From Halocafeteria seosinensis (lineage: Eukaryota), in contig LVLI01000585.1 of assembly GCA_001687465.1 (NCBI GenBank), positions 1-61,585 on the forward strand: 61,585 nt of DNA, in the 5' to 3' direction. Below the pieces are notes generated by a model. That model made no database searches and was not told the origin of the DNA. It was given only the letters and a program-made list of their open reading frames with translations. Of the stretch, positions 7,729-52,172 are shown one piece after another. How positions within the stretch are numbered: position 1 is the first letter of the stretch; the number at the start of each line of letters is the position of its first letter. A program made the translations under genes and the position numbers.

Positions 7729-9484
7729 ATGACGAACGAATCCCCAGAGCCTTCATCTGCTAGGAGCGCTTCATTCCGAGAAAGTGGATCCCCTCGAGCT
7801 TCGCCTCCGGATGCGAAATCCTCCCGTCACAAGACGAGTGGACGAACCACGCTGCTCCGGAGCCACAGGCATGCTCCTCGATACAGGGATGAGAACGGAG
7901 AGAGGCTCTTCCAAGGCAAGTTTGATGAGACGACCCATGCGCCGCTGGAACCGAACCCTGAATGTAAAGCAAAGGATGCTTACGAAGAGCCATTGCACCA
8001 AGCGAAAGGCAGTAAGTGCTATATCACAGGAGGCTGCTAGAATTGGCTTGAGCGAAGAACTTGTTGAATTCTGATGCAGCTACTGAACCTCATTACTACG
8101 ACTATCTGTCCCGCGAATGGTTGAATTATCCCGAAAACAAAAACAAACTGAGACCTCGAGGAAGGAATCGCAAACCGTAAGTGCAATTGTACAACGCTAA
8201 GTGTTTCGGCTAGCTTAGAGATAATTTGTCTTCTACAGTGAATCTGCAAAGAAATCCCAGCCCTTTACTGGCGAGAGTGAGCACGCATCCCAATTTCGAC
8301 CAAAAAGTTCTGGACGGGATACCTATCGACCAAAGCGAGGATCTACCATCCCCTTGGGTGGTGGAGGCTTCTCAGGAACCACAGAGTTCCGGGATAGATT
8401 CCCTGGACATGAACCAGTTCCTCCTGCGCCTGCACCGCGACCAGCATATCACCCTAATGACGTTCCTCTGCAAGACACAACAACATACAAGGACAATTTT
8501 GTACCTCAGAAATCCGGAAAGCCGTCACAGTTCTCTCCTCGACCCCACCTTAAGCTACCAGGAGGGAACATGACCGAAACACCAGAACATCGGCGTGCCT
8601 TTGTAGACCCTCAAGGCAAGGGCCGTCCAAATAAATATAGCCCGCTTAAAACTCGTAGGCCGAACGTCGACTTTGCTGGCACCAGTTCATACGCAAGGGA
8701 CTATCCACGTCATGATGTCCGCAAGCATGCTCCGTCTCCTAAAAGGAACCAAAAATTTCGGAGCAAACCGCAGCCCGGCACATTACCGCAATCAACATAC
8801 AGGGATAGTATTGGCCAACCAGATACCGACAACATCAATGAACCACCTCCGGCCAATCCGTCACCGAGGAGGTCCGAAAGCGCTCCAATGCCGAGTCAGA
8901 CGGAAGCATCTGATACTTTTAGAAACCCAAATGGCTCACCTTTGACGGTGAACTTCTCTCCTATGAAACCCAGGCAAAACTTGCATGGAGGCGGAGATTT
9001 TCGACCCAACACGGAAAACCGCGACAAGTATGTTCCACACGAAACCGTACCGCCGCTTCCAACTTCCCGTCCAGAGTATCGTCCGAACAACATACCCCTC
9101 CAGTCACAAACCACGTACAGACAGACATATTCAAACTATGACCCTCAGTCGCGCCCTTCCTCTGTTCGCCACCGAGAGAATCTTCGCACTGGCGGTCCGT
9201 TCAAACCTGACACAGAGAACCGGTCAAATTTTAGACCGTGGGACGTCCAACCTCGTCGCCCTGCTACTTCCACATCTCCTCGAATTGCTTCCCCTCACTT
9301 TGCTGGAACAACAGAGTACTCGCGCAAGTACACCCGGCACAACTTGGGCTCTGGACAGAGAAAGCCTCCTTCCAAAGTGATAGATAGGCAATTCGTTGAT
9401 CCTTCGACCACGTACAGAGACGGACCAGGAGCGTTTATTGACGAGGATCTAGCTTCTGAGGACTCTAGGGGGTACGTTTACTAA
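7729..9484 (+). CDS. SAXO/FAM154 (STOP-like Mn-motif) microtubule-stabilising protein
   Basis: Repeated F-x-G-T-T-E/T-Y/F-R-D-x-F/Y motifs (FSGTTEFRDRF, DTTTYKDNF, FAGTSSYARDY, TENRDKY, FAGTTEYSRKY) in a Pro-rich context. Introns at 8012-8079 and about 8177-8238 join the ORF pieces in frame. Confidence 0.7.
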
Positions 9485-9510: not shown

Positions 9511-11571
9511 TTAACATAGCATTCGAAGCACTCTAGGGAGAACGTCCATCCTAAATGGAGAAAACCCACTCACCTCTCCGTCAATGTTCAAAGTATTTGG
9601 GCCGCTCACTGTCGATGTTTTTTTAATGTTTTTCTTTTGTTGTGTCGAACCTTCGTTTGCATCACTGTACCTGGCAGTTTCATCATCCACGGGACGCAAG
9701 ATGAGTTCGCTAGCCTGCAGCAAGAAAGCAACATACACACCACTGTGGGATGCAGAAGGGCTACTGTACTAACCTGCAAATAAGACACGCTCGAAGCATT
9801 CAAGTGTTCTCCTTGTGTAGACTTCTTTGCACGATCCAGAACTTTCACCGCTTCCATACGCGTCGGGTCTGTATGAGGCATTGCAGCATGATTCGAATAA
9901 GCGCAAGATCAGTTGAAGAAACGTACTTGTCATTAAGATTACATCAAACAACCCATCATCCACTTTGGCATAAGGACATAATGCCATCTTCTCCCCGATG
10001 TGGACAGTGTTCTGAATCTGGATCATTGAATACTCAGTTTGCGAGACATTCAGTTGATTTCTATCGTCAGTTAACTCGTTCCAGCTACAATACGCTGCAA
10101 GATCCTCAAGCTTTGTGTGTTGAGTTATATGGTTACGTTTCCTGTCTGTTGAGCTATTGCCACTGTCACCAGTCTTCAGTTCCTGCTTCGTGTTAGCATC
10201 ATCAGAGGACGCATCTGACTCCTTCTGTTTCGAGCCGTCCTTGCTCTCTACATCCGCATTTCCCTTGGCAGGGTCAGGAGTTTCTGCCTCGTTATCCTCG
10301 TCATTACCTTGCTGAGTTTGAGGAGATGACCTCGTATCGCCCTCTATTCCAGTAACATGATCACCTGACTTGTACTCACTCTTTTCATCTATAACCGGCA
10401 ATCGAGAGTGACTACCGATTTCTGCTGTTGATGCGGATTGACCCGTAGGAACCACGAATTCCAGGGCAAGGCGATATGTTCTCATCGATAGGATCTGGAA
10501 AGCTGCAGCCATGTTGTACTGAGCTGACCCCATCCATCTGAGACTATTCGCTGTGGATAGTATTGACCATGTCAGACCATATCCCACCATGTTGATCGAA
10601 AATGTTATATATTGGGACAGGCCCTTATAGCTCATTTGAGCCCAGTATGCAGAGCTATCGGAGAAGTGCAAATGTAGCCGAGAAGGACCGCCTGCTTCAG
10701 TAGCGGTAGCTGCGGCGTTACTCTTAGTGTGATTATTTTCAGCACCATTGTCCTGTGATTCTTCTTCATCTTCTGGCGCGGCAGTATCCTCCGTTTCCTC
10801 GCGTTGCATCGCAGTCGGTATTCTACGTCCACGCCCCTCTTCAGCAGAAGAGCAATGGGCGGAGGACGACGGACCAATGCTTCTACCATCCCATACTTGA
10901 GAGTTGAGTTCTAGCGCCTTCGGTAACAGGCTTGGGCTGTGAAAGTTGGCGGCATTCGATGGGTCATTTGCTGCGGGTGTTTCGGGTTTCGGATCGAGGC
11001 TTGGCGCCTGCGTAATCTGCATGATATCCACCAGTCGAGGCTTGGCTCGTTTCAATGCCTCCAATCCCTCTTCCACCGTAGAGTATCCAAGCGTGAATGC
11101 TATCGTATTGCCACTCCCTGATGGCAGAATGCATACAGGTGGAATATCCAAAAGATCATATCTCTCTTGGACGCATCCCAATAAGAGCGCATCAATGACC
11201 TGATGGACGGTGCCATCTCCTCCTAGCGGCAAAATTGCGTGGTAGCTGGTAATATCATCAATATCCTCAATTAAGCTGTATACGTGCCCTGGATACTCTG
11301 AATAGCATACTTCCACCGTGTACCCACTGCTTTCCAGGGACCGAATGACGTGTGATGCTGTCGTTTTGCTCTTTTTGGAGCCACTGTGAGGATTGGTGAT
11401 GAGTAAAACATGCTCTATGGGAAGCTCCTGTAAGGGTGAATGGGTAAAAGCGTCGAAAATGGAGGTATTTGATGCTGTATGGGAGGAAGTCTCCTGATGA
11501 TGGCGAGGAGGAGCTGGCTCCGGGGAGCTAGTTTGGCTCACAGAGGAGTTTGTTGAGCACCGATTCCCCAT
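9511..11571 (-). CDS. Diacylglycerol/sphingosine kinase family lipid kinase (DAGK_cat + YegS-type C-terminus)
   Basis: Motifs ITNPHSGSKK, LGGDGTVHQV, LPSGSGN, AKVDDGLFDV and LNIDGE. The likely start MGNRCS resembles a myristoylation/palmitoylation signal. Two short 3' introns. Confidence 0.85.
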
Positions 11572-11894
11572 GATAGTATACCCCAAACAGATAGCGCTCT
11601 CCTTGTGAATATAAAATGCCAATCTTATCTTACAATAGGCGAGCTGCTGCATAAAAGATAATTGGACGAGTATTGTAAGTATCAGAAATGATTGCACGGT
11701 TGGATGTGCATTTTAGTCGCTTGGCGACGCTTGCCACCATAATCGGACACAAAGAAATGAATAGTCTCTTTCTTTTCGGATTCAGTCTAGTTTTACCACC
11801 ACCATTTTTGATTGGTTCCACAGGATGGTGAGAATTGACTGATTCCACATGCATGAGTTGTACGCGTGTCTGGAAGATGCAGACACGTCTTCCA

Positions 11895-14800
11895 TCACCA
11901 TCTTCCATTGTTGTCCACGGAGGTAGCCTCTTCTTTTCGTTGCACAAAGTAGCGACGGATGAGGTTCTCTATTCTTAGGTAGTGCATTAGCGCGCCGCGG
12001 AGATCTTGCTGAGAGAAAGGCTTAGGAATGAAGTAGGACATCCCCGCCTCCGCACATAACTCCCGGTCCCGTTGGAGTATAGAAGCGGTTACGGCGACTA
12101 TCCACGGACGTTGATGAGCCGGAAAATCAGGGTCCTTCAAAACGTTCCTAGAAAATGTTAAACCGTCCATTACAGGCATGCTTAGATCTAACAAAATGAT
12201 GTCAAACTTTGGTGATGCATTCTTTACCGTTTCCTTGGCAATCGTACCGCTGCTAGCGGTGTCGTACGAAATACTAAGTCTTCGGAGTAGGGCGCAGGCA
12301 AAGTTTACGTTGGTCTGAGAATCATCAACAACCAATACACGTAATTCACTTAGTGTCCGCGCTCTTCCCAGATCTAGTATCTCTTTGGGAAAAAACGATC
12401 CCGCAGACGTTGAGACACCCTCTTCGTTCATCTCAAGTCCCTCGGGATCACTTGGCGAACATGCTGAGGTAGCTTCACTCGTGTGCGCGATAATATCTTC
12501 GGAAACAGACGCGTCCATTTCACCCAATTCTTCGGGGACCTTTGATTCCCTATGATACGTTTGCTGCGTGTTTGCTCGTGCTCTTTCATTGTTCGCCTCC
12601 TCTGTGCGTCTACCCAAACTACTTATATCTCTCCAATATGAACATAAGTAGTTGATTTGAGGTAATGCAACCGATTCTTCCGGGTGAACAGATCTAGAAA
12701 TCACAGAACATGTTATTTCTTGTGCTTTGTTCAAGGACAACGGTCGAGTCGCTACGTATGTCGAAGCGGAAACATTGTTGGATATATATCGCTCGCTGAA
12801 GTCGTCGGGATTATGCGGTTCCTCGTGTGCGTTGTGCCCTGCCACCAGTGAATCAATGAGTGTAGGACTATCACCTAAGCTGTCTGAGCTTTCAAGAGAA
12901 GATTCGCCCCAAGAAACAAAATCCAAGGCCTCAGCACCTCCATGAGACATCGGATAACTATGCTGTCCCTCAGTGTCGTGCGCCCTGCTCACCTGCTGCG
13001 GTGGAAGATGAATGCCGGCAGTCAGCACCGCCCTCCGTGATGGAGCCAGTATTAACACAGGAAGCCGCGACGAGATTATACTATTCAAACATTCAGCATC
13101 TTCAGATGTTTTAAGGGAATCCAAAGACACTACGAAAAGACGCTTCTTAATTCTCGGAGACGATGGACTGCGTTGGAGTGTCGGATCCTCCTCGTCCGAA
13201 CACAGGGACTGTGCAATAGTCCCCAACGTTGGTGCTCTTTCTCCCTCACGACGCGAAAAAAAATTGTTATCTCTTTCAAATCTCTTCACCCAGCGAAAGC
13301 TAATACTGCCAGGCTCATCAGGGTCAAGAAGGTCATCCTCTGCGGGGGAGCTCGGTAACTCTTCGCCTTTAAAGGAAGTAAATTGCTCCAAAGAGGTCGA
13401 GATACGAGCACCGCACTCGAGAAACCGTTGAGCAACAGCTCGATATCCAGAGGGGGATGTCTCAGCAATGTAGACGAGAGTTTCACTGTTGTTTCCACCA
13501 GATATCGGCTTGAGGCCCGCATCTGGGAGCGTGCCGTCAATGCTTGTAACATCCGAGTTCGACCCTTGGCTAGAACAGCAGTGCTCACAAGAATTCGGTG
13601 CCGCCTGCAAAGAGAAGCAGATGAAAAATGAGGAACCGCATCCTCTCTTGGACGTAACAACAATGTCACCACCAATCATCTCAACGAGGCGTTTCACGAT
13701 TGGTAGGCCCAGACCTGTTCCCCCGTAGTACCGTGCGATACTGTCTTCGCCCTGGTGAAACTTGTCAAAGAGCTTGGGGCCCAGTTCCTTGTGGATCCCG
13801 ATGCCAGTGTCTGCTACCTCGAGCACGATAATCACTCCATCATGAACTTGCTCCGCATTTGCATTCGTGTTGCCGTCATAGCTTCCACGAGGGCGCCTAC
13901 TACGATCGCTGTACACAACCTCATGTACACTGCGACGGTTGCTCCAGCAAAATGGCAACTCATTTACATCATTGGAAAGATAGCGGCGCGGATCAAGTAG
14001 ACGGGCGTCCTTGGCGAATTGCTTCGATGGTACGCGAATAGCAGTGAACGATACCAAAATCGATCCCTGTTCCGTGAACTTTGCCGCGTTACCGAGTAAA
14101 TTTATAAGAATTTGCCGAAAGCGTACAGCGTCCCCGAATACAAATTCCGGCGGTTCAAAGAGCTTTCGCCTTCGCAAGGAGGACTTCACATCATCCGAGA
14201 CAACCGATCCAGTGTCATCCACGCAGTAGCATTGCAAAGTGTAATCTAGGCTCACATTTTTTCTATGGCATTGGTACGATAGCAACTCTGTAACGTTTTC
14301 CACATTCGTGCGGATCGAAAAGGGGATGTTTTCTAGCCGCGTCTCACCCAATTCATATCTGCAGCGATAAGCAATAGTCACGACTCATAAGCTCATTCCT
14401 GAGATCTCTACGACTGTGATATAACGTACTTCGTCAAGTCCAAGACATCGTTTAATAGTCCACACAGGGTTGACCCACTATTGGCAATAGTTTGAAGATA
14501 CTCTCTTTGCTCTTCAGATATTGACGTTTCCATAAGTAACTCTGCATGTCCAAGGATTGCATGTAGAGGAGTTCGCAACTCATGGCTTATCATTGAAAGA
14601 AATGTATCGTTGGCTTGTCGTTTTTGTTTTTCCATGTCTGCCAACTTGCGCAGCCGACCCCGCTCATGCTCCAGCAATTGAGCTTGTTCGATTGCTTGGG
14701 AAAAATGATTAGCAGCATCCTGAAATAAGCTCTTATCTTCGTCCGAAAGGTCAATTTCTTCTTTCATGCATACCAATATTAACCCATACACATAGTCTCC

Positions 14801-16031
14801 GGACTCTTGAGTAGATTGTTCGCTTACACAGCCAGATTCCTCCATTCTAACGGGATCGATCACGCTTTTATGGCATCTGACTTCCACTTCACTAAAATCA
14901 CCAATCAAATACTTTTCCAATGGAATATTACTTGAAGACTCCCGTTGATCTTCCATAACCCCCCAAGCACTGTCCGCAGGAAGCCGTACACGGAATCCAT
15001 ACCAGTTATGCCCACTTCTACAGGTTTCAGGCTGCTGTTCTTCTGGACTAGCGGGAGCCAGTATATTGCTTAACAGTGGAAACGGGGCACCGGGTCCGAG
15101 GAGGTAAGCAACAGTAATCGGTGACAGTCGACATCCGGCACCATTAGCAAGTACTTGTCTTACTTCCTCGACAACTTTAGCACTCCCAAAATTCACCTCA
15201 AACGACGGAACGAGTTCAGTGTTGGAGCTGGCCTGGGCGTTGGCCAACTCATCACTTGTTTCGCCATCTACCACTGCAGCCGAGAAGAACACCTGATTGT
15301 TCGGGTACAGACTCTGACTAGAAGTGGCTTGGGCTTCCGCAGATTTCTCATCACGTGTAGTCGGAAAGGATAAAGCAACGGAAGAAATATCGTCAAGGTG
15401 TTTCGACATTGCATTGGCAGTGTTTTCAACAACTTCCTGGACTGTGGTCGCCGTATTGATCTCATCAGCAATTCGTCGACCTACCACCGCTTGTTTTTTT
15501 TCATGCCTCAGGCGCTTCTCTCTTGTCACTTGAGCTTCGATTCGCTTAAACACTGTAGTCGCTACTTCATTCGTAGCAGAAGGCAAGATAACAGCAGCAT
15601 ACACACTGACAATAGCAGCTCCCACTTTCATGAGCATGGAGAACCAGGACGATTCCAACGTTGCCACAACCGTGCTGATCATCATTCCCAGATGGCTAAG
15701 TCCGCAAGCCGCGATAAAGAGTTGGAAAATAAGGAGAATCCTACTCAGATCCTGCAGAGGGAAAATGAAAACACCGGCAGGAAACCATCATGCCAATAAC
15801 CTTCCCCGGCTCTATTGCAGCGCAAATGCTTACTTCAACCACCTCCGTGTACTTGTATCGCGTGTACACCATGTACGCTGATATCGCCGTATAGGCCAAG
15901 AAGAGAGAAACATCCGCCGTGGCGCCTGTGGCCTCCACTCCAAAGCCATGGGGGCTTCCATCGAAGGATGCCAGGGACTCGCATGGAGTCTGTTGTGTAC
16001 CTTGCGGCAAGAGGCCTCGCAAGGATCCCAT
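11895..16031 (-). CDS. Ethylene-receptor-like hybrid histidine kinase A (3-TM ethylene-binding domain, GAF, HisKA, HATPase, pseudo-receiver, receiver)
   Basis: Spliced N-terminus ADVSLFLAYTAISAY...VVE|DLSRILLIFQLFIAACGLSHL...MKVGAAIVS. H-box MISHELRTPLH, N-box QILINLLGNAAKFT, DTGIGI, GGTGLGL. Receiver VLVVDD...LLDLSMPVMDG...VTA...KPF. Introns at 15752-15833 and 14359-14429. Confidence 0.9.
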
Positions 16032-16903
16032 CACTGTATACACCCTCTCTGTATCACACACCCATACACCAGAAGGAGAGACTGAGTTTGGGGCGACTCT
16101 GAGAGTGTCTCTCTGCAAGGATGTATGTGCTTATGGGCAATCGTCTCTTGTTCTACGCTAAGTAAAGTGGAACACCTCAGTCCCGAGGACGTCCCAAATG
16201 AGGCGTATGTGGCTGTGCTCCACCCACCATGCATCATCGACGTGAACACCACAAACATGATAACTGGTTGAGACTATACGGTGGTGTACTGAATCCGTCA
16301 TCCACGGACAAGGTTTTCGGCGGAAAATGACTCGATTGACCCGGTCGACCCAGGCGTACCACGGAAAATTCAGGCTTCTGCACGTCCAACTCTATTGTGT
16401 CACGTAGTGTCTTTAACCTTCTCATACGTTTCATCCGGATAAATATTCGGTTGCAACATTTGCTGAAAGGTCACTGAGTATGCTCTGTGGACTCGTTCTT
16501 CAGCGTTCTTTATGGACCGGAGACCGGAGCAGCCGACGATTAGGGCCCAAAGTGCAACGTGAACGTGCCTCCGTTGGTCGAGAGACAATTCGTATACAAT
16601 ATTGCATGCAAATATAACCAATTCAAGCATGTTAACAATGGGAAAGGATAGAAAGCGCTTGTTGTTGATGGGTCTTACACTGTCCTCTTTGACTCCTTTC
16701 GACTCGACTACGTTGGAAGTCTGAATTACGCTCGCTTTCCTTGGCATTCACGGGGCAGGCCAACTGGAAGAAGACGTTACTTCAGTTGCCTCGAGCTTTC
16801 TCCGGTCGGCGAGATGTATTTTACTGCCATATACATTGCTTCTTGTGCTGGTTTTGACTCACTACTTGTACCACATTGACGAGGTGAGACGACCACCAGT
16901 CAG

Positions 16904-16975
16904 CACACATAGCCCACCGGCCGGGAAGGTGACCGCATCCTCTTAACGAGGAGCAGTATGCGCCCGTGTTAAGCA
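16904..16975 (-). mobile_element. Short dispersed retroposon-like element, copy 2 (may extend to about 17037)
   Basis: ATAGCCCACCGGCCGGGAAGGTGACCGCATCCTCTTAACGAGGAGCAGTATGCGCCCGTGTTAAGCA matches 1420-1486. CAGTCAG near 16897 and near 17038 is a candidate TSD. Confidence 0.65.
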
Positions 16976-17219
16976 GCGACGGGCCCGCTGTTCCTGCAGC
17001 CTTGCTGACATGCGCCGTTGAGGGAACACAGCACTGGCAGTCAGTGATCCGACAGCACTTATACATGTACTACAAACTCGTTCATAAGTTATTTCGGAAC
17101 TTACAAAAACTATGATAGTGGGCTGTATACGCCTGCGACGCTGCTTGTGTATTTCTTTTCTTTCATAACTCCAGGGACTTTAACCTCTTGTCAGTCAAAA
17201 TACCGCTACCCGCTGTGCG

Positions 17220-17258
17220 CACACACACATATGTGACAGATAGCCCACCAGCTGGGGA
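17220..17258 (-). mobile_element. Truncated copy 3 of the same element
   Basis: CACACACACATATGTGACAGATAGCCCACCAGCTGGG matches the tail end of copy 1. Confidence 0.6.
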
Positions 17259-17616
17259 CTTACAATGATCCAGTCCTTTTTATCAGGGGTTTCCGACTAC
17301 GCCTAAGCTGTCTGGTGCAGAGGAGCAATTGTAGGATGTTGCGCAAATGGTTGCATTTAGTAATGCCCAATACAGTTGAATACACACACGCCAGTACAGT
17401 GTATGGAGAGGGCACTTACTATAGTTGAAGTTGAATACGACTTGCGATGGTGTGAGTCACTGAGACCCAGAGTGACGTTCTACGAACACTCCGTGAATCT
17501 GCATCCAGTCACTCTACTAGTGGATCCACATGGGGGTGCAATGGTAATCCTGGAGCCCAAGTAATAGGTTGATAAGCACGATAAATAGACTCATACCGCT
17601 CTACAACGAATTTAGA

Positions 17617-20600
17617 ATGCGGGGCATACGGGCAGCGGCAGAACGAACTACCCCCTGCGAACCTTTGACGTCATTCGACGAGAGCCCACATGTCCTTGGA
17701 GTAACTACGACGGCCGCCACGGCGGATGTGGCTTTGTTTTTGGCTTATACAATGATATCCGCGTTTCTACTGCGCATGAGATATAAGCATAAAAATGTCG
17801 TAGAGGTATGTGTACAGTGTATGTGCCTTCAGCTGGAGCGGGTCAGCAGACGTGAACGAATGAAATTGCAGGATGTCAGTCGTATACTATTGCTATTTCA
17901 GCTATTCATAGCCGCGTGCGGACTTAGTCATTTAGGAATGATGGTCAACATGGTGGCGGCCACTGTCGGAGCGAGTTGGTTCTCTATGCTCATGAAAGTT
18001 GCTGCCGCGCTGATTAGCCTCTATACAGCGGTGGTTCTCCCTGGGGCCACTCATGAAGTAGCTTCAAAGTTGTACGCGAAGATTGAGAATCAAATATCAA
18101 GAGAGGAACGGCTCAAAATAGAGAAAGCACAGGCGCTTAAAGCTAGAAAAATTGCGGATGAAATCAACGCAGGAACTTCGGCTTCGGAAGTTGTGCAATC
18201 GGTGGTGAGTAGCACGGTCAAACATGTCGAAGGGATCCGAGCTGTCGGAATTTCGGTACCTACAAACTGTGATCCACAAGATGGTGCTGTGCATTTGTTT
18301 GAGACGCCAGAAGTGAATTCGGGTAGAGCCGTCTTTTTCAGGTCCAGAGCCCTGGCTGAAGCCCCACCTAGCCAAAGTGATTCCACGTCGACGCTTTCAA
18401 GCTCACTGAAGATTGGAATGGTGGCTGCGCTGCGTCTTCATCAGTGCAGTGATAAAATCGCTAACGAAATACGCCAGGTGATGGCAGCTGGTGTAGGCCA
18501 AGTCGTGTCACCGGAGACCGCTGCCTTTCTTCTCGGGCCGAATGCAGACGCCCAACTCTTGGCGAAGATTGCTCATTCAATTCGCCAGTCCGAGCTTATT
18601 GATCAACAATCGTCTGGAAGTAATTCCTCTGTTTCCCCCATGGTTGAGTGGTCCAAATGGTATGCTTGCCGAATTCGAGTTCCTACTGATTCCTTCTGCG
18701 AGAATGCTAACTCCGAGTCCCCATTAAACGTACGGAAGGAATATATGCTCGACGAGACCGATCAATTGTTTCCCCGACGCAACTTCAACAGTAACGGGCT
18801 TGAGAATAGTACGGTATCTATAGCAGTATCGCAGCCTCCATCAACTGCAGATCCAACGACGGATTCTCCTAAGTGCTCCTGGAGCTATATGTATGCCGTC
18901 ATGCTTGTATGCATACAGGAAGACTCATCTATAGGTGAAGCAGAAGTTGGTACTTTCGAGGATATTACCAATCAGTGTTCTCGGACAATGGAGCAAATTC
19001 GTTTGGTGGAAAATGAGCACGAGCGACTGCGAAGCCTTGCTAAAATCGAGAAGCAAAAGCGACAAGCGAACGACACGTTTCTGTCAATGATAAGTTACGA
19101 ACTTCGTACACCGTTGCATACCATCTTGGGATATTCAGACCTATTGTTAGGAACGTCTACGACCGACGAGCAGAGGGAATTCTTGCATACGATTGTTAAT
19201 AGCGGATCCACTTTATGCGAACTACTCAACGATATTCTAGACTTAACCAAGTAAGTGGAATCGAAGAAATGTGCATTTTCGGGATTTTATGTTGACGTTT
19301 CTGGGGGTTGAATCATTGCAGGTTCGAGCTCGGTGAAATCAACGCCGTCGCAGCGCCCTTTTCAGTAAGGGCCAACATTGAGACTGCGCTCCGGCTATTT
19401 TCACCTCGCGCACAAGACAAGTCTACCAGTATCAACTACATATCGCAATGCTATAGGCTCGACTGGCGTGGAAGAATAGCTTATGACGATATAAAGGGGT
19501 CTTGGTCCGAATGGAAGAATTTTGAGCCACCCGAGTTTGTTGTCGGAGACGAAGTGAGGTTGCGGCAAATCTTGATCAAGCTGCTAAGCAATGCCGTCAA
19601 ATTCACTGAAGGTGGTTCCATTTTGATATCGGCAACCACGGTACGCGTAAATGGGGAACATGCCAAGAGAAACCCTCTCTTGATGGATCCGGCTGAGTAC
19701 CTCTCTAGTGCGGTGGAATCACTGCCCTTTTGCTGGAAAGAGCGCAGATACGAGCATTCAGTGGTGTATCAGAGTTGCAGTTCTAATGATGGTACACAAT
19801 CCTCTACTGGGGAACCAAGGGAAGAAGATGGAGTCAGTACGAGTCCTCGGAATGTCATGGTCGAGGGAAATCACGATACTGTCGTTCTGATAGTGGAAGT
19901 GGCAGATACTGGGAGTGGCATTGATACCAACTGTGGAGAAAGTATCTTCGAAATGTTCCAAAGAGGGGCAAGCAGGACGAGAGGTACAGGATTGGGCCTT
20001 GCAATGGTAAGAAACCTAGTAAAGATGCTCGGAGGAGAAATGGTTGTAACTTCGAAGAAAGGACTTGGTTCATCGTTCTTCCTATGTTTCTCCATGCAAG
20101 CTGCGAACTTGAGTTGCTCCCATTGTAATGAACTCAACGAAGATTCCAAAGGCGTATCGGACAATGATATTGAGCCAATGTCGCCTCAAAGTGGAGCATT
20201 TCCGGAAGGAGTTAGTGCTATCGTTTTCCAATCGTCCCTCAGTGACTATCGAGCGACAGTGCAACGTCTCTTGGAAAGCGGAGCGTCAGTCTGCACCTCT
20301 GAGGAGGAGTTTGCGGGACTTGGGGGCAATATTTTCCCGTTGCATCCCAGTTCTTGGGAGGAGACCCTTTCCGACAGGATAACACATGACATAGAGCTTT
20401 ATGACACGTATCAGTGTTCGACAACTTTGTCAATAGGAAGGCTGACGCGACTTGTCTGTGGTGGAAGTGGCAATGATTCAGGGTTTTTTGGCACCGGCTC
20501 CAAATCACGCTTACTAGTCTTAGACTACCGTTGTCTCCGTACGGAACAAGATGTTACTTACTTAAATACGCTCATAGCGGAGTCAGTCCCAATGCTTTTG

Positions 20601-21755
20601 CTCGCTCCTTCCAGAAGGATCCTGGTAGAAACCGGCGTCAGTATTCCTGGTGTGGAACTTCCCGGAATTCTTCCCCGCGAAGTCCGTGATGCAGCGCAAC
20701 ATGTTCAGCAGGACTCTGAAGAAATGGATCTCACATCGTTGAGCCAGGTTGCGGATGATGATACCGATTCAGATGATGACGGCCCGCAGCTTGTAGATGA
20801 GGTGATTTCAGCTGATAGAAGAAGGGCAACGCAGTTTCAACCGCTGGCAAATAAAAATTCCAGGAACGCTGAGAATATCATGGTCTATACTGGTACTCAG
20901 CCACTGGCGTTAGCACAGGTTGCGGAGGTCGTTGCCACGGTAATATCTTGTTCTAGGTCTGTACGGTATTCAGCGTATCCGTTGTGGTCTTTCCTGGGAT
21001 CATATTTCGATACAGCAAACGCATGTAGCGTTGTAAATAACGGAGGCACTGTCGCTCGTCCAGCATCATACTTCTTAGATCAGGAAAATTCTGCTCATTC
21101 GAAAAAAGCATGTCCCATCGCAACTTCTGTCAAACGCGATCGGAACGCTAGCTTGTCACCAAAGGTTGCTGAAGGAATGCAAGTAGTGCCGCAAGAGGGA
21201 GTTTATTTGAAAACGGGGGCGTTTTTTCCTCAAAGCACCCGTGAAAGTACTACCGAGGGTACTCTACGCGTTATCATCGTTGACGAGGACCCTTCGAACT
21301 CGGAGTACGTTTCACGGCTTCTGGAAAGAATTGGGGTCGACTCTGAGGTCGCCAGTGACGGGAAAACTGCGACAGAGAAGATCAAGGACGCCACACCCAA
21401 GTTTGACGTGATGTTGCTCGACTTGGATATGACGACAAATTACGGCTTTTCTATTCTAGAAAATGTAATGAAGGATGGGGTGGTACCTCAAGTAAGGAAA
21501 CCTGTTTGTATAGCTACGACAGCATCGGTTTTGCAAGCTGACAGGGAAAGATGCACAGACGCGGGTGTTTCGTATTTTATTCCGAAGCCGTTTCGCTCCG
21601 GCGACATTTCTCAGGCGCTTGAATACTATCGCAAGCTCGAAGGCTACGCAAGACGGTATTACTATGAGAACCTTCATACTGTCGATGAAATGGACTACTA
21701 TGCCTCATCGAGTGATCAATGGATTGGTCTACAGTCTGTCACTCATAATGAATGA
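17617..21755 (+). CDS. Ethylene-receptor-like hybrid histidine kinase B, degenerate H-box (His to Tyr)
   Basis: ADVALFLAYTMISAF...VVE|DVSRILLLFQLFIAACGLSHL...MKVAAALIS. H-box reads MISYELRTPLH; also QILIKLLSNAVKFT, DTGSGI and RGTGLGL. Receiver IIVDED...LLDLDM...TTA...KPF. Introns at 17806-17871 and 19251-19321. Confidence 0.9.
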
Positions 21756-21796: not shown

Positions 21797-23582
21797 CTAA
21801 AACTCTACAGCTGTCCAGTTATGTCCACTCTGTTCGATGAACGATAAGATATCCTTGATGTTTAGCTCGACGCTTGCCTCATTTGTCAACGGATGTACAA
21901 GGACAGGACCACTATGCTCGAGTAAATTGCGATCGATAGCCACATTGACGACTTGCGCTGTATCGTTCATCAATGCGAGAGGTGAAACGTTTCCTTGCGT
22001 TGTCCCAAGGTTTGTAGCTAAGGTTTTCGCATCGGAAAAACGAAGGGTAATGTTACCATATCCAAGTTGTTGACCTAGGGATTTTAAGTCAGTAGCGGTA
22101 TCGTGTTTCTGTAGAGAGCGCCGTTGAACGAAACTGATATTGCTACGAGCGTTATGAACATAGAACGCCGTTGTTCATGACGTACCGCCACAAGCAACCA
22201 TAATCTGCTATCGGCTTCATTTTTTGCTTTCTTTGCTTTAATAAAGAGGTTCTTTACCTGGGCAGCTCCTTGGATATGAGAGGTAGCTTTGACAAGCTCA
22301 GCCACCTGGGGTACAAAATTTCACAACACTGTATACTTCTGGAGCAGTGCACAACAGGGACGGTTGAATACTTACCGTATTTGTAGCAGCATGTCGATGA
22401 AGAGCGTAAGGAATCTGGTAAAATTTTAACGCGGATTCTGCTTTATCTAAGCGCTTTGCGCTATCCATCTCAGTTTCGGAGATATTCTCTGGTCGTTGTT
22501 CTAATGTAGGCTCTTTGGCAGATTGTTTATTCCCGGTATACGTTTGTTCTTTCTTGGGGTCATCAGCGACCTGCTCCGTTTTCGCACCTTTTCGTGGAAC
22601 TGTCGACTTCTTTACAGCCTTATTCAGTTCCATCGAGTCATCAGCCTCCTGAGCTGCCCGTTGAGGGCAAGGTCTAGCATCAATTTGACATCCTACTCTT
22701 TCGATCCCTCCAACGTGGCACCCGCTTGCTATCAGAGCCTCGTAGAAACAAGCATCTTGCGATATTCGACGAATCCAATCGGAGGTATTCGGATAAGCAG
22801 TGGATCCACTCAAGCAGAGCAGAGGTTCGAGCAGAGTACTCCCCAAAATCATGTCAGCAGCTGCTGGTTCCTGCGTCCCGAGAATAAAGCGACTCGAGCT
22901 GAGTCTATCTTCCACTTTCTGCAACGATTGCGAAAGGGTCGGATGCTTTTGAATCCTGGCTACTATCTCTTGCACCGCTTGTTTCTGTTGCGGTGAGTGT
23001 TGTACACCCATGTTAACCAGAGTTTTCAGCATAGCCTTTTTATCGCCCAAGACTTCGTTCAGTGTGGCCTTATCAATTCCTCCTCGGTGAAGCAATTCCA
23101 CCCACGAATCAGTCTGTATTACTGAACTCAATTCAGAGGCGGTCCTACCTCACGGTTGGCGGGACGTAGGTACTTACTTCACCTTCATCTTCGTACGGGG
23201 ACGCCGTTCCAATGACGTTCCCCTGGCGGTCAACGCTTTGCAATCGTCCCAAAGCCATGGTGATGGCGGGCATTCCACTGATGACCATATCTTCCTTTAT
23301 TCCCCACCAATGAACATTTTCGGCGTCATCTGATTGTCCCATACTGCTCGTATCCAGGTGGCCCAGCGCATCCGCGGCCTCCTTCAGGGAGCCATACACG
23401 AAGATATTGACCGTATTTTCCGGAAAGAAGCTCCTACGTTCTGCACGGAGGCTCTCAGGGACCACATAGATGACGTAAAAGCCCCTGGAACGAGCCATAG
23501 CGATACAGGGAAGAGCATCTTCCGGGGTGCCTTCCAGCACAATCGTGTTTTGGGGGGTCAGAGTGGGGCTTACCAGCGACAT
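21797..23582 (-). CDS. GST-like domain fused to a YbaK/ProX (PRORSD1-like) aminoacyl-tRNA editing domain
   Basis: GST_C-like FILGTQEPAAADMIL...YPNTSDWIRRI. ProX-like HRHAATNT|VAE, VKNLFIK, LRFSD, GTTQGNVSPLALMND and VHPLTNEASV. Three GT-AG introns join the ORF pieces in frame. Confidence 0.8.
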
Positions 23583-40575: not shown

Positions 40576-40838
40576 GGTCAGCTTTTGTCAAAGGCAGCGG
40601 GCCCACGGGCCTTGAATGGAGGTTCTCTGGACTAGAATAACATGATGCATCTCACCAATATGAATAGAAACCAGCATATTACGTACGCAACAAGAGGAAG
40701 AGTTTCGTCCGTACACGACAATCAAATGTGAGACTGCTTTCTCTACGGTACGAACATCAAGTTCCTCTTGAATGCGATGTTTGAGGAGCATTCTGAGATA
40801 CTTGATCTCAAGTTAGGTGGGGAATCCATTGAACTATC

Positions 40839-43800
40839 ATGCCGAGCAAAAAACAGAATAAAAAACAGCGCAGTAAACGAGGAGGAGGAGGGGGAAAGAA
40901 AGACGAAGACCACTCGATTCCTCAGGGCGGCAGCCATGGTTCAAATGACTTCCACGGTGCCTTTACTGCAGGCTCTGCGACCACAATGCGTGGCCAGGAG
41001 GGTGATAGAGGTAGCATTGAACCTAGCAGTCGTCAGACAGCGTATGCTGGCCTGTCACGCGATGCACTCGTGGCGAATCTGTTTCCTATCATTCCACTCC
41101 CAGAAGACACCCAGGGAGGCTCCGAAGATAATGCTAGTCCCTCCAAATCGAATTTCGCTCTCCAGAAGCAAAATTGGAAGCATTTTGACATCGACTGGCA
41201 TCTGGGCTACATATGCCCCAAGAATAACCCGAAATGGTCACTGTGCCGCAACATTCATCTGCTAGCTGCTGAGTGGGAGTCGTGTTCACAACATCATGTG
41301 TCACGTTTACTGCAGAGTAAAGTGGCGATAGATCCTCAAACTGTGTACTCCATCGCAAAGAGAACACGTTGTAACGAATGTAGGCACTCGTTAGTACATG
41401 GATTGCAGGATGTTTTCCAGGATAGTGAACGCTTTCGGCAGCTTTTGGAGGGGCATTCAGTCCTGTCCAAGCTTCAACTATCTCCAGCTAGTTCAGGTTC
41501 CTCCTCGTTTTCCCGAGGATCGAACATAAGATTGACCCTGCCAAGCGATCTAAATCCGAAATGGGTGGATGAATTGCTCAACACAATCCAGAAATATTCA
41601 CAAGGAGAAGGTGCCACAAGTCCACCATGGTATGCTCCTCGTTTGGAACCGCAACGCGGGACTACTGGTACTGCAACGGAAGTGGCCGAGGTGCGGCAAC
41701 GAACTAGCCATTCTATTCACTACGGAGGAAATGAAGGGGATAACGATATAGATTTTAATACTGAAGGTGTAGCAGTCATGAACGCACTATATTCTCGTAC
41801 CGTGCGCGCTGTCGACAGCGCTGGCGAGACAGCAAAGTATATTGAAACAAGAAAGGCTATCCTTGGGAAGGATGAGAATACGATGATGGCCCACTCGGAC
41901 GGAAGTGCTGCCATACTGGAAAGTGGGTCTTCTTTGGAAACCGCTCAAAGGATGCTGCATGATACACATGATCAGTACGCTGATATAATACGAGACACAG
42001 CCAGACTGAGTCGCAGCCTCAGGAAGTATAGTTCGTTCTTGAGAGAACACTTGATATCAGCACTAGCCGCTGCGGTCAAGAGGGGAGAAGACCCTGGAAG
42101 GGTGCTACCGAAACGCCTGCTGTCACGCTTACACTCGTACCTTGACTCAAGCGCTTGCAACCTTGATGGATCCTTAACTACCCAACCGAATGATAATTTG
42201 ACCCCTCCTGGTATCAATGTTAAGGAGTACATCTCGCAAATGTATAGTAAGGCAAGGAGCATCGGACAGGGTGCCCTCGAGAGCGAACTTAACCAAAGTA
42301 CCGCGAAGTCTTCTTCACTAGGGAGGACGTACTCTGCCATTGATAAAATAAACGTCGTGGCTGACGTTTTCGATGATATAGCGGAAGCCATCTCTTCTGT
42401 CTGCTCCGATTTGAGGAAACTATGTTGTCAATGTAGTGATCGCTTATCCGGTCGTGGCATTGACCTGGCCAACGACTATGGCTTAATCTGCTACATTCCT
42501 ACGACCGCGGAATTTTTTGCTCCCTCCCATGAACTGCGTCCATGCCAGTTCTTCACGAGCCAAGGGCTGGGTTGCACCAATTCTCTAGACGCCTGCTCAG
42601 CTCATAGTAGTTGCATGCAAAAAGTTGAAGTTTCAGAACTAAGTTTTAGGAAGCATATACACTGCGCTGAGTGTGGGGAGACAATAAATATATGCTCCCG
42701 AGACAATTCGCCTCACTGGACCATGTGGGATGAAGTTCTGTGCGTGAACCACGAACAAACGTCCAAAAAAGCCAACAATGCTTTGCAAAAGTACTCTAAA
42801 CTATGGCGAGCTGATATGCTTGCGATTCAAGGGCGCCTATTGGCTTCTATTATCCAAAAAGGCCTCGTTCCTTTGAGAGATTTGCTCTCCGCTCATCTGT
42901 CGCACGGCTCCGTCTTTCGGGATCTGATGGATTGCGTTCCGCGTTTGATTGAGACCCAACTTTCCCGTAGACAAAAGGAAGCAACCCATGCAGATCGTCG
43001 AAGAACCCTCGTTAATGAATGCTTGAAGGGTGAACCTAGCGGCATTCACTTTTGGTTGGGAACTACTCACTCTTTACAGGCATCCGCCAAGCGCACAGCT
43101 AATTCGTTTTGGCACAAGATATTAGAAACATTTGCTTCATCGACAGGCGAAGTTCTTGTGAACGGCAATGATATGAATGAAACAGGTTCGGAGACCCTAC
43201 GATCAGCCTTATGTGCTAGTTTTGACTACCTGGAGGAGTGCTCGAATAAAGCCCAGTGCTCAGTCACTTTGCCTTTCCGCTTTCCCATCGAGAGTGTGCG
43301 GGTAGACTCTGTGAGATGGGCTCCCTATGGACATAGCAAGGAGAGACAGTTTTCCTCTCTTTCTCAGGTACTTCCGTTCTTAGGATTTCCTCAGGATGCG
43401 TACGTGACAAGCAGAGCCTTGTGCCTCAGGATAATGGAGTCGCGCGTGAAACAGTGGATACATGCTCTTATTTTCGCCTCCAGTATCCTGTTCGACATAT
43501 GGCACGTTGTTCAGCGTTCCGTACCCGCCAGTCAGATCGAAAGACAGGCCTGGAAAACGGATTCACGCCACGTTGAGCAAATGTTTGAACTTAATCCAGA
43601 ATCGCATCTTCTTCTGAGAACGCTGGCCGAAGTGGACGAGCACCTAAGAGGTATTTCGGATGATGATAAACTAAAGCAAGAAATATCACGGGAATATAGA
43701 CATGTTGTGGATGGTTTCGGTAAGAATGCCTCCAGCTATGACACAAATATATTGCGTGCTTCCTTGGCTTCTTCCAAAGGGTTTTCACGCGCTGAGGACC

Positions 43801-45410
43801 CGACTAACCGTTGGGCTACTGTTGCTACAAGAAATATCGAATGCATGCGAACGGAGCAAATGGGTCTTGGAAAAGCCTATACGGCTCTCGTGGATGCTGT
43901 TACTATTGCTGAAAGACAAATGTCTGCGATGACGCCGATATTTTGCAGCATTGAGTATATATTGTCTACTCTGGAATCAAGAAAAGCTGCTTTTTGCAGG
44001 AGTGAAAATCTCACTCAGCACTTTCAATGGATTCTTTATGACTCTTTGCTGCAGCACCTGGAGGATGTTGATGAACTCTACAAAAACAACGAAACTTCAG
44101 AGGATACTCGTTTGAAATCGCTGCAGGCTCGCAGGGGAGCAAAAGAACACTCTTTGAGTAGACCTCCTGAGTCAGAGAGAAAGCAAACTAACACCAGTAC
44201 GAAGAATACAAGTTCTTCCACGAGCCAGCGAGATCGTCTAAATTCTGCTGCGGTAGATAGTAACGGAGTATCCGTCGTGGAGATAGCATATCCGGAGGAC
44301 GGTTATGAAGAAAATGGAGATGAGCAAAGCTCTTGGGTCACCGTTAGTCGTTCAAGGAAGTCTCAATCTACCACAAGAAAGAATAAGCGGCGTAATAAGA
44401 GGAAGGATAAATCCGACGCTGTTGACCACGGGGCTACAGCTGTAACGCGACCTCCTGTGCTTCCAGCATCCGAGTCAAGCCCTTCACTAAAGAAAGTGGA
44501 CCTCAACGGGGGAAAGACGGAATCCCTTACTCAACCAACTGCAACCATTCAAAGGGGGGTAACTCCTTCAGGAGACACAAGAGAGGCAACCAAAGAGGTT
44601 GAAAGTAAAGCGCGTGTACTTGGGTCAATAGAGTCCAGTCCTACAGTAAATAAGGCTCGGGATGCGGACGGGCTTGAGAGGACAATCCACCCTCCACGAC
44701 AAAATGATACAAAACGACGTCTCAAACTTGTATCGGAGTGCATTTCGGACAATGTCCTTCCAGCAGCTGATCGCCAAAGACGCCATGTGGGAAAAAGAAG
44801 TCCTGCAAGCCCTGAGGTAACCGGGAATAGTGCAGCACGGCACTCCGAAAGCTCCGATCACGCTCCTCCAAATATGAACGGGAAAAGACCCGGATCTACG
44901 AACTCGAACTCCATAGCTGAAGAAGTGGAAGACCTTTGCAACGCTGTACTAGGGTCGAACGACGAAAACCTAATGCAGAGTGCAGCTAAGTTCCTCAAAG
45001 ATTTAGTGGAAGAGCATAAGCCCCGTAAGGGAGAGCCAATGGTGACAAGCTCATTAGACGATTCCCAGTCTTTGGATTCCAAATCGCCGGCTCAAAATAC
45101 TGCCCCACAAAGAGTCAAAGCTCATTCCGAGAGCCACCTCCAGCCAGTGAACGGTATACCTAGGGAGGTGTCACCAGCATCACTACAGAAAACGCCGTCG
45201 GTAACTGCTGGTCAGCAGCAGCCACGTCCCTCTCAGTCCCGAGGAACGACACTAGTCCACGCAGCAGCAGTGCAAGATATTCGCCCTCGCCCTTATGGTG
45301 TTCGCATGATTGGCGTAGATAACGCTGTTCCAACAGTTCCCTGGTATGAGTATCCTCAACATATTTTTGAGGCTCCAGACGCAACAGTGCCGGTATGGCT
45401 GCAACGGTAA
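40839..45410 (+). CDS. Large intronless hypothetical protein (1523 aa) with CxxC motifs and a disordered C-terminus
   Basis: Uninterrupted 4.5-kb ORF containing CNEC and CAEC motifs and basic NLS-like tracts. The N-terminal region weakly resembles Nst1/GGNBP2. Confidence 0.8.
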   Translation: MPSKKQNKKQRSKRGGGGGKKDEDHSIPQGGSHGSNDFHGAFTAGSATTMRGQEGDRGSIEPSSRQTAYAGLSRDALVANLFPIIPLPEDTQGGSEDNASPSKSNFALQKQNWKHFDIDWHLGYICPKNNPKWSLCRNIHLLAAEWESCSQHHVSRLLQSKVAIDPQTVYSIAKRTRCNECRHSLVHGLQDVFQDSERFRQLLEGHSVLSKLQLSPASSGSSSFSRGSNIRLTLPSDLNPKWVDELLNTIQKYSQGEGATSPPWYAPRLEPQRGTTGTATEVAEVRQRTSHSIHYGGNEGDNDIDFNTEGVAVMNALYSRTVRAVDSAGETAKYIETRKAILGKDENTMMAHSDGSAAILESGSSLETAQRMLHDTHDQYADIIRDTARLSRSLRKYSSFLREHLISALAAAVKRGEDPGRVLPKRLLSRLHSYLDSSACNLDGSLTTQPNDNLTPPGINVKEYISQMYSKARSIGQGALESELNQSTAKSSSLGRTYSAIDKINVVADVFDDIAEAISSVCSDLRKLCCQCSDRLSGRGIDLANDYGLICYIPTTAEFFAPSHELRPCQFFTSQGLGCTNSLDACSAHSSCMQKVEVSELSFRKHIHCAECGETINICSRDNSPHWTMWDEVLCVNHEQTSKKANNALQKYSKLWRADMLAIQGRLLASIIQKGLVPLRDLLSAHLSHGSVFRDLMDCVPRLIETQLSRRQKEATHADRRRTLVNECLKGEPSGIHFWLGTTHSLQASAKRTANSFWHKILETFASSTGEVLVNGNDMNETGSETLRSALCASFDYLEECSNKAQCSVTLPFRFPIESVRVDSVRWAPYGHSKERQFSSLSQVLPFLGFPQDAYVTSRALCLRIMESRVKQWIHALIFASSILFDIWHVVQRSVPASQIERQAWKTDSRHVEQMFELNPESHLLLRTLAEVDEHLRGISDDDKLKQEISREYRHVVDGFGKNASSYDTNILRASLASSKGFSRAEDPTNRWATVATRNIECMRTEQMGLGKAYTALVDAVTIAERQMSAMTPIFCSIEYILSTLESRKAAFCRSENLTQHFQWILYDSLLQHLEDVDELYKNNETSEDTRLKSLQARRGAKEHSLSRPPESERKQTNTSTKNTSSSTSQRDRLNSAAVDSNGVSVVEIAYPEDGYEENGDEQSSWVTVSRSRKSQSTTRKNKRRNKRKDKSDAVDHGATAVTRPPVLPASESSPSLKKVDLNGGKTESLTQPTATIQRGVTPSGDTREATKEVESKARVLGSIESSPTVNKARDADGLERTIHPPRQNDTKRRLKLVSECISDNVLPAADRQRRHVGKRSPASPEVTGNSAARHSESSDHAPPNMNGKRPGSTNSNSIAEEVEDLCNAVLGSNDENLMQSAAKFLKDLVEEHKPRKGEPMVTSSLDDSQSLDSKSPAQNTAPQRVKAHSESHLQPVNGIPREVSPASLQKTPSVTAGQQQPRPSQSRGTTLVHAAAVQDIRPRPYGVRMIGVDNAVPTVPWYEYPQHIFEAPDATVPVWLQR

Positions 45411-47121: not shown

Positions 47122-47705
47122 TTCATCCACTCATTCGGCGATTTCATATTCCGCGGAGCGGCAGCAGAGGTTCCACAAATGTGCCAGTATCAATCAAGTT
47201 GAATCAACCCCCGTGGAACTTGAAACTTGAGGGAACATTGTGGTATCTTGTTGGCCTTAGAAATCGTTGTGAACTTTACTACGCTGAACTTCACAGTGAC
47301 GATCCAGAGTCACTGGCAGAGTGCCAAGCACTGCCAACAGCCTGTTGGCAACAGGCAAGTGCTGGAGTACTGCTGCAGTCCGCGGTCCGAAAGATCTGCA
47401 GTGCACTGAATGCACTGTGCGGAATCTTTGGTGGCTTTACTGCCAGTAAATTACTGGTCTCATTGAATCACATGATATAATAATGATCACATGACATTGA
47501 ATCATTATTATGTACTTGATGAGCAACGAAAGACTTGCCCTGTTTGGTTACAAGAAGGCCCCATAAGTTTTTTACAAGTCATCAATTTTTGGTGGAGGAT
47601 ACACGGTAAAAATCCTTCTTGCGGAATCCAGCCATATTTTCTTTTTAGCCCCTGGCTTAGAGGCTCTAAGCTTATATTTTCACGAGGCTGTACCTGAATA
47701 TCATA

Positions 47706-51895: not shown

Positions 51896-52172
51896 TCCAC
51901 ACCAATACCACGACGGTAAAATCTAATATTAGGTGAATAAATATATTGACAAATAAATCTATCTATCCTATCATTCCATGTGTCTGTGTCAGATAAATGA
52001 TCAGCAGCAAGGAGTGAACTGAATAGAAAGTGAAAGAAAAGATTGACATGTTTGCTTCTATTCATTCACCTCCCATTCTGAGGCGCTATAATGGGTTTAT
52101 CAGGACGTTTTCCCCATCCATAAGAGAAAAAAGGTTCTCAGTATATAGATCTGCACATCTTGGTAGTCCAAC

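Follow-up and report, generated by a model that had tools for sequence, protein, structure and literature searches.

Genes A and B, which lie head to head and diverge within a 61,585-nucleotide (nt) stretch of DNA from Halocafeteria seosinensis (contig LVLI01000585.1, positions 1 to 61,585; the window, below), are real and expressed genes that have been correctly identified, and both almost certainly belong to the ETR1-type sensor family. Gene A is predicted to encode an active hybrid kinase, and gene B is its sister, with a Tyr in place of the phospho-acceptor His. Homologues of ethylene receptors have been published from protists before, and the presence of the family in a non-plant eukaryote is not new. 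The value of the pair lies instead in a fixed Pro-to-Ser change at the position equivalent to Pro36 of Arabidopsis ETR1 (hereafter the Pro36 site) and in the His-less sister gene. Papers are cited here from excerpts of their texts. We did not meet, in the literature examined, a lineage-fixed Ser at this site together with a constrained, His-less sister beside an intact kinase. No prior description of the pair was found in the literature searched, and further reviews and supplements may hold more taxa or Pro36 variants.

Gene structure and the ETR1-type sensor

Gene A is encoded on the minus strand in three exons (16031-15834, 15751-14430, and 14358-11895; 1327 amino acids, aa), and gene B on the plus strand in three exons (17617-17805, 17872-19250, and 19322-21755; 1333 aa), with 1585 nt between the start codons. 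Each spliced frame has a single stop, at its end. The introns of A measure 82 nt (15752..15833, phase 0, separating sensor helix 1 from helix 2) and 71 nt (14359..14429, phase 2, at the end of HisKA), and those of B 66 nt (17806..17871, phase 0, in frame and without a stop) and 71 nt (19251..19321, phase 2). All four are GT-AG introns, and their positions and phases are common to both genes. Because 524 of 1269 aligned residues are the same in the two proteins (41%) and these intron positions and phases are shared, we read the pair as the product of an old inverted duplication.

Four public sequencing runs (X1-X4) cover the stretch; they come from one study and at most three samples, and none is recorded as RNA. 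In three of them (X2, X3, and X4) contigs skip all four introns, so that splicing of both genes is seen in the same runs; no such joint is listed for X1. The joints match the GT-AG ends of three introns, and for A intron 2 the length (71 nt) is correct and the placement 1-3 nt off, an offset that would fit a one-base synonymous allele at the first base of exon 3. Spliced B is also identical over 1333 of 1333 aa to the transcript-derived EukProt record P0001, which possibly stems from the same underlying data as the spliced contigs and is counted with them as one line of support. The splices that the initial annotation had placed between sensor helices 1 and 2 are borne out by these contigs and by P0001.

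The same contigs differ from the window at 64 places, 40 of which are listed; 25 of these fall in the coding sequence of gene A (14 synonymous, 11 not) and one in gene B. The contig pieces likewise show B to be nearly invariant, for which haplotype structure and differing selection are candidate causes.

The sensor of gene A spans 15575..15935 (minus strand) and carries Asp40, Tyr47, Ile50, Ser51 at the Pro36 site (codon 15881-15879), the CGLSH motif (codons 15706-15692), and Lys108. That of gene B spans 17704..18048 (plus strand), with Asp37, Tyr44, Ile47, Ser48 at the Pro36 site (codon 17758-17760), Ile76, Cys79, His83, and Lys105, its CGLSH codons lying at 17917-17931. The Cys/His codons were already exactly placed in the initial annotation, and every helix 1-3 motif residue that it listed is present in both copies: B has Asp37, Tyr44, Ile47, Phe72, Phe75, Ile76, Cys79, Gly80, His83, Lys105, Ser112, and Ala116, and the A equivalents match too. 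The equivalents of the copper-site residues Asp25, Cys65, and His69 and of the relay residue Lys91 are thereby found in both genes, where ETR1 numbering is taken from papers and spacing and not from an alignment with the ETR1 sequence. In ETR1, Cys65, His69, and Asp25 form the copper site and Lys91 relays to helix 3 (PMC10266040); the roles of the conserved sensor residues are also described in PMC11819568.

The proposal of a head-to-head ETR1-type pair holds up in profile comparisons as well, and the N-termini align with ETR1-type domains. The Pfam family ETR1_N (PF25487), with a cut-off of 27 bits, gives a score of 51.9 for spliced B (residues 32-122, aligned to profile positions 5-90 of 97) and of 31.7 for exon 2 of A by itself, and an hhalign profile-profile comparison of the lineage with five bacterial domains gives a probability of 98.1% (E 1.3e-13). 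Hydropathy shows three N-terminal peaks in B; helix 1 of A is weaker (peak 1.32), and all three helices align to homologues. The Atlas score of 0.80 for the B sensor region, intron included, is a lead only. A PDB sequence search returned HisKA matches only and no solved relative of the membrane domain.

With ETR1 itself, both proteins share the three-helix ETR1_N, the equivalents of Asp25, Cys65, His69, and Lys91, a His-to-Lys spacing of 22 (H69-K91 in ETR1), and the sequence order GAF, HisKA, HATPase, receiver, and gene A has all the kinase boxes. They differ from it in the Ser at the Pro36 site, in an Asp-to-Cys spacing of 42 rather than 40, in having one N-terminal Cys rather than two, in a GAF unrecognised by Pfam, in some 380 extra residues before the receiver, and in a length of about 1330 aa. 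The bacterial receptors SynEtr1 (Slr1212) and AzoEtr1, both of which bind ethylene according to the excerpts, have the sensor family in common with A and B; unlike them, A and B have introns, no cognate regulator next door, and no trace of the bacterial loop motif between helices 2 and 3. The His-to-Lys spacing also sets the pair apart from bacterial receptors, being 19 in those of the listed bacterial matches (116 of 120) that fit the pattern, and identity to the sampled bacterial domains is at best 30-39%.

In a sensor tree A and B are sisters on a very long branch, and no bacterial donor is indicated. This tree held 72 of 203 bacterial rows (rows shorter than 80 aa or at least 80% identical were dropped) over 107 columns, with bootstrap unsettled; it contained no other eukaryote and no plant sequences, and the metagenomic relatives P0122 and P0123, described below, were omitted as partial. 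Word-based searches with the B sensor retrieved B alone among 242 candidates (proteins of 733-2333 aa) and, when the query included the in-frame intron, B alone among 978, A's protein being absent both times. A profile search scored 7997 proteins and matched 4720; PF25487 is present in each of the 120 listed, those with names are cyanobacterial, and no eukaryotic receptor is among them, in keeping with a cyanobacterial bias from the seed rows. Scans for loci of the A/B lineage were empty in JGI metagenomes and in viral contigs. Another viral scan gave one weak locus (L001:3001-3141, IMG/VR), which matches sensor helix 1 at 35% over 44 aa.

An intact kinase beside a His-less sister

HisKA, HATPase_c, and Response_reg all score above their Pfam cut-offs in both proteins. 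Gene A (11895..16031, minus strand) runs ETR1_N, GAF, HisKA with His456 intact, HATPase, an insert of about 380 aa, and a receiver with Asp1231; gene B (17617..21755, plus strand) runs ETR1_N, GAF, HisKA without its His, HATPase, the corresponding insert of about 380 aa, and a receiver with Asp1223. In A the H, N, G1, F, and G2 boxes are complete, the phospho-acceptor His456 is encoded by CAT (14582..14584, minus strand) within SHELRTP, and the receiver (11979..12347, minus strand) is canonical, with VVDD ... LLD ... T ... KP. It is on these residues that the prediction of an active hybrid kinase is based.

In B the phospho-acceptor is replaced by Tyr472 (codon TAC, 19096..19098, plus strand) within SYELRTP, and the public contig pieces imply no difference at this codon. 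Lys609 (19578..19580, plus strand) replaces the first N-box Asn; the second, Asn613, is kept, together with G1, F, most of G2, and the E-x-x-T motif, and the ATP lid is four residues shorter than that of A. The receiver of B (21261..21629, plus strand) retains the phospho-Asp1223, the Thr, and the Lys, with D-E as its acidic pair. From these residues, B would be unable to autophosphorylate on His and likely still binds ATP. The two-receptor module of the initial annotation survives as two receptor genes and not as two equivalent kinases.

One should not take the loss of the His as a sign of general decay in B, since of 83 near-invariant columns past residue 455 it keeps 59 and A keeps 58 (some middle-region columns are misaligned). 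Identity between A and B is highest in HisKA (73%) and the sensor (69%), followed by the ATPase (53%), the receiver (46%), the GAF (32%), and the middle region between ATPase and receiver (27%). Synonymous sites are saturated (proportion of synonymous differences 0.74-0.93), and nonsynonymous divergence (dN) is lowest in the sensor (0.23) and HisKA (0.21); both copies should therefore be old and constrained. Judging from its substitutions, we accordingly do not regard B as a pseudogene: it is old and under constraint, and the sensor and the dimerisation helices are what it has kept best.

The plant subfamily II receptors ETR2, EIN4, and ERS2 (PMC6566107, PMC9603746) offer the closest likeness that we can draw for B, which also keeps its sensor, lacks His-kinase residues, and coexists with an intact paralogue. 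Unlike them, B has no fourth hydrophobic N-terminal helix by hydropathy, and its ATP-binding boxes are mostly kept. Since B is sister to A and shares its introns, in a tree without plant sequences, the loss of the His most simply appears to be independent of that in plants.

The initial annotation gave both proteins the ETR1 domain order. Its content stands, GAF included, and the strict order does not, as about 380 extra residues separate the ATPase domain from the receiver in both. The GAF is a divergent domain at 18148..19017 (plus strand) in B, with its counterpart in A at about 15475-14663, and was recognised from its fold and from Atlas features. No Pfam match to GAF was obtained in spliced B even at E 10, and a GAF profile built from 13 domains aligned with no more than the final helix. 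A two-sequence AlphaFold model of B 17995-19020 (mean pLDDT 52, core 70-80) has as its best match the GAF domain 3e98_B (Z 10.7, root-mean-square deviation [rmsd] 4.0, 170 residues aligned), GAF proteins dominate the list, and Atlas features reach 0.92 to GAF clusters for the B region. The predicted fold thus supports a GAF domain with long, disordered insertions between sensor and kinase.

The extra residues comprise an alpha/beta region, according to a predicted model, at 20187..20993 (plus strand) in B and 13505-12645 in A. This model (mean pLDDT 53) matches receiver domains in at least 18 of 50 rows (e.g., 2rdm_A, Z 6.0, rmsd 3.5, 106 aligned), and these matches (Z 5-6, about 100 aligned) tie with von Willebrand factor A (vWA) folds (best Z 6.9). 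A receiver profile gave no match to the region, and Foldseek alone returned no match at E<=0.001 for either the GAF model or this one. The region is possibly a degenerate receiver.

The Pro36 site and the proposed gas sensor

Both genes carry Ser at the Pro36 site (Ser51 in A, Ser48 in B), a residue found there in none of 202 bacterial rows (Pro in 192, Ala in 10). Of the sets behind this count, the 120 profile-search proteins listed all have Pro, and the 83 locus rows (78 genome and 5 plasmid) have Pro (72), Ala (10), or a gap (1); both sets come from bacteria, lean towards cyanobacteria and alphaproteobacteria, and overlap in part through redundancy. When all representatives were searched with a 63-aa exon 1 query, two metagenomic proteins, P0122 and P0123, were found at 55% and 52% identity. 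Both carry D-x6-Y-x2-I-S, and their similarity ends where intron 1 begins. Ser is present in four of four lineage members (A, B, P0122, and P0123) and is a trait of the lineage. An N-terminal Pro-Cys is invariant in the same four (Cys14 in B, codon 17656-17658) and is a candidate for a disulfide linking receptor dimers. A third exon 1 match, the 6440-aa Ig-like protein P0124, was dropped as a chance match.

Ten of the bacterial rows have Ala at the Pro36 site, ten have Val at Ile35 and Phe at Ile62, and eight have Asn for Asp25. Most likely these rows make up the Microcoleus/Nostoc branch (L072-L080 and L083) and represent a subfamily with a degenerate sensor.

The residues required for ethylene binding, which we take to be D25, Y32, I35, P36, I62, C65, and H69, are kept in A and B at six of these seven positions. 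Because the Pro36 site is Ser, neither protein satisfies the seven-residue rule for a canonical ethylene receptor. The number seven is that given in PMC11819568 and others.

We tentatively favour, at slightly less than even confidence, a reading in which A and B work as one unit that senses a small gas in a copper-dependent way, with A as the active and B as the His-less partner; the gas would probably be ethylene, bound with altered affinity. In such a unit Cu(I) would be held by Cys79 and His83 with Asp37 (B numbering), and the ligand signal would travel over the Asp-Lys bridge to helix 3, the coiled coil, and the GAF to switch the autokinase of A, both steps being modelled on ETR1 biochemistry. 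Phosphate would pass from His456 of A to a receiver Asp and on to an HPt protein, of which there is none among the window open reading frames (ORFs) scanned. B, if its conservation is a guide, would pair with A and damp or tune its output, whether as a second phospho-acceptor (Asp1223), as a phosphatase (E-x-x-T is kept), or as an inhibitory subunit. Such pairing has a precedent in plant type-II receptors, which lack histidine-kinase residues and form tight heteromers with type I (PMC6566107). Taken separately, copper binding by the sensors is probable, measurable ethylene binding is only slightly favoured, and for a functional A-B complex we see the chances as evenly divided.

Several points weigh against this proposal. 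The Ser at the Pro36 site weakens the case for ethylene, since P36L abolishes ethylene binding in ETR1 (PMC12214528, citing Wang 2006); substitutions at this site also underlie the ligand-blind plant receptors etr2-1 (P66L) and Nr (P36L) (PMC12214528), and no Pro-to-Ser datum was found in the literature search. The initial annotation, in proposing ethylene sensing, was right about the copper residues and did not have the Pro36 site in its motif list. The Asp-to-Cys spacing is 42 against 40 in ETR1 and bacteria, the helix 2-3 loop T-L-W-x-P-x-Y, present in 120 of 120 listed bacterial matches, is replaced, and the sensors sit on their very long branch at no more than 36-39% identity to any sampled bacterial domain. 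Among the 83 of 119 window ORFs scanned there was no HPt protein, copper ATPase, or free-standing response regulator, and neither CTR1 nor EIN2. Between the two starts there is also a repeat of high copy number (about 16905-17256), and the head-to-head placement may just reflect the inverted duplication.

Some of these points would also suit a retuned metallosensor, in which the copper site is kept and the pocket rebuilt for CO, another alkene, a volatile sulfur compound, or the copper or redox state. It would accommodate the Ser (four of four lineage members, none of 202 bacterial rows), the lost loop motif, and a long branch combined with strong constraint within the lineage. It fits less well with the retention of six of the seven binding residues and of the Asp-Lys bridge, with Ser being less bulky than Leu and perhaps tolerated, and with family members that, where tested in the literature examined, all bind ethylene. 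An olfactory receptor that detects organosulfur odorants and depends on Cu(I) follows a similar ligand logic (PMC10266040). We hold the metallosensor explanation to be unlikely while giving it real weight. If the membrane domain were instead ligand-blind and merely anchored or locked the kinase, the true input being the expanded GAF or membrane stress, the parallel with etr2-1 and Nr (PMC12214528) and the large GAF with its long insertions would follow; the retention of Cys, His, Asp, and Lys by A and B alike and a sensor conserved at 69%, far above the 32% of the GAF, make this improbable.

The two proteins might also work as independent receptors, A as a homodimer with a His-Asp relay and B alone as a scaffold or as a Ser/Thr kinase like subfamily II, with no complex between them. 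In favour of this, B retains the G1 and F boxes, the greater part of G2, and the second N-box Asn; plant type-II receptors are reported to show Ser/Thr activity in vitro (PMC6566107); and the contigs give the genes separate starts about 0.8-1 kb apart. The conservation of HisKA as the best-conserved region (73%) despite saturated synonymous sites fits a shared interface, though it would also fit separate homodimers, and we consider independence rather unlikely. An artefact, be it plant contamination, mis-assembly, or a B pseudogene, has the loss of the His to recommend it if that is taken alone. It is largely refuted by the spliced contigs, the match of an intact 1333-aa frame to P0001, and a saturated dS (synonymous divergence) with low dN; flanking eukaryotic housekeeping genes and the lack of any plant receptor among the sequences retrieved add to this, and the chance that it is correct is very small indeed.

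Host, surroundings, and relatives

Genes are densely packed in the window and are eukaryotic in kind; among them are RPT3, an SMC-family gene, exportin-T, and cyclophilin. The C-terminal exon of RPT3 scores 243.6 bits against 8amz_K, which we take to be a plant RPT3 subunit, 236.7 against a mammalian subunit, and 182 against a yeast-type one. No plant receptor was among the 978 and 242 candidates of the word-based B sensor searches, although a query from a plant receptor should bring up others from plants. The accession prefix of P0001 may point to a heterotrophic stramenopile. Because of this, and since RPT3 is nearly equally close to the plant-labelled and mammalian subunits, the host is probably a non-streptophyte eukaryote, likely a protist, as the initial annotation had suggested; the two tests are weak and agree.

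The divergent intergenic region (16032..17616) measures 1585 nt. Spliced A contigs reach 16512-16710 and B contigs start at about 17536. In X1 the repeat within it reaches a summed contig depth of about 1e5, compared with about 105 nearby. It has a (CA)n lead-in and two direct copies of a 21-nt sequence that are 331 nt apart, and there is another, incomplete copy of the repeat near 1416 (window about 1390-1490). Contigs of three runs swap 16711-17223 (513 nt) for 13 other letters, and the insertion looks polymorphic. Rfam gave no match in 16000-17650.

Downstream of A lies a gene for a diacylglycerol/sphingosine-kinase-like protein (9769-11712, minus strand), and a gene for a YbaK-type tRNA-editing domain (21797-22174, minus strand) converges on B, whose contigs extend to 22109 and overlap it. 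Long open frames without a Pfam match at E 0.01 are found at 40833-45410 (plus strand, 1525 aa), 49511-51922 (minus strand, 803 aa), 8225-9484 (plus strand, 419 aa), and 47670-48821 (plus strand, 383 aa).

Among non-plant eukaryotes, ETR1-type kinases have been described in diatoms, Acanthamoeba, and Capsaspora (Fistulifera FsolaHK12-15, AcastHK27/28/35, and CowczHK2; PMC6324907) and in early-diverging fungi (such as RiHHK6; PMC5285503), with degenerate kinase domains in the Conidiobolus and Basidiobolus homologues (PMC5285503). Homologues are also listed from labyrinthulomycetes, zooxanthellae, chromerids, and brown algae (PMC7700396, PMC6944256). Like A and B, the diatom, Acanthamoeba, Capsaspora, and fungal homologues place an ETR1-type sensor on a hybrid kinase and are often multi-copy. 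Unlike A and B, which lack Pro36, they are reported to keep all perception residues (PMC6324907, PMC5285503), a comparison made by description only.

A more speculative proposal, to which we give a low probability, is that this protist lineage independently evolved the heteromer of an active and a His-less receptor known from plants and fixed the Pro-to-Ser change at a site that plants need for ethylene binding, so that the copper pocket became tuned to a different gas or range of affinity. If true, the pair would be a natural experiment on ligand specificity and on the retention of kinase-silent paralogues. None of the SAR candidate receptors had been studied functionally as of a 2020 review, going by its excerpt (PMC7700396), and A and B offer a compact test case. 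Should the sensors bind ethylene, the rule of seven essential residues for calling receptors would need revision; should they bind another gas, the family would become a broader one of copper-based gas sensors; and if A and B heteromerise, the subfamily I/II design of plants would have arisen twice.

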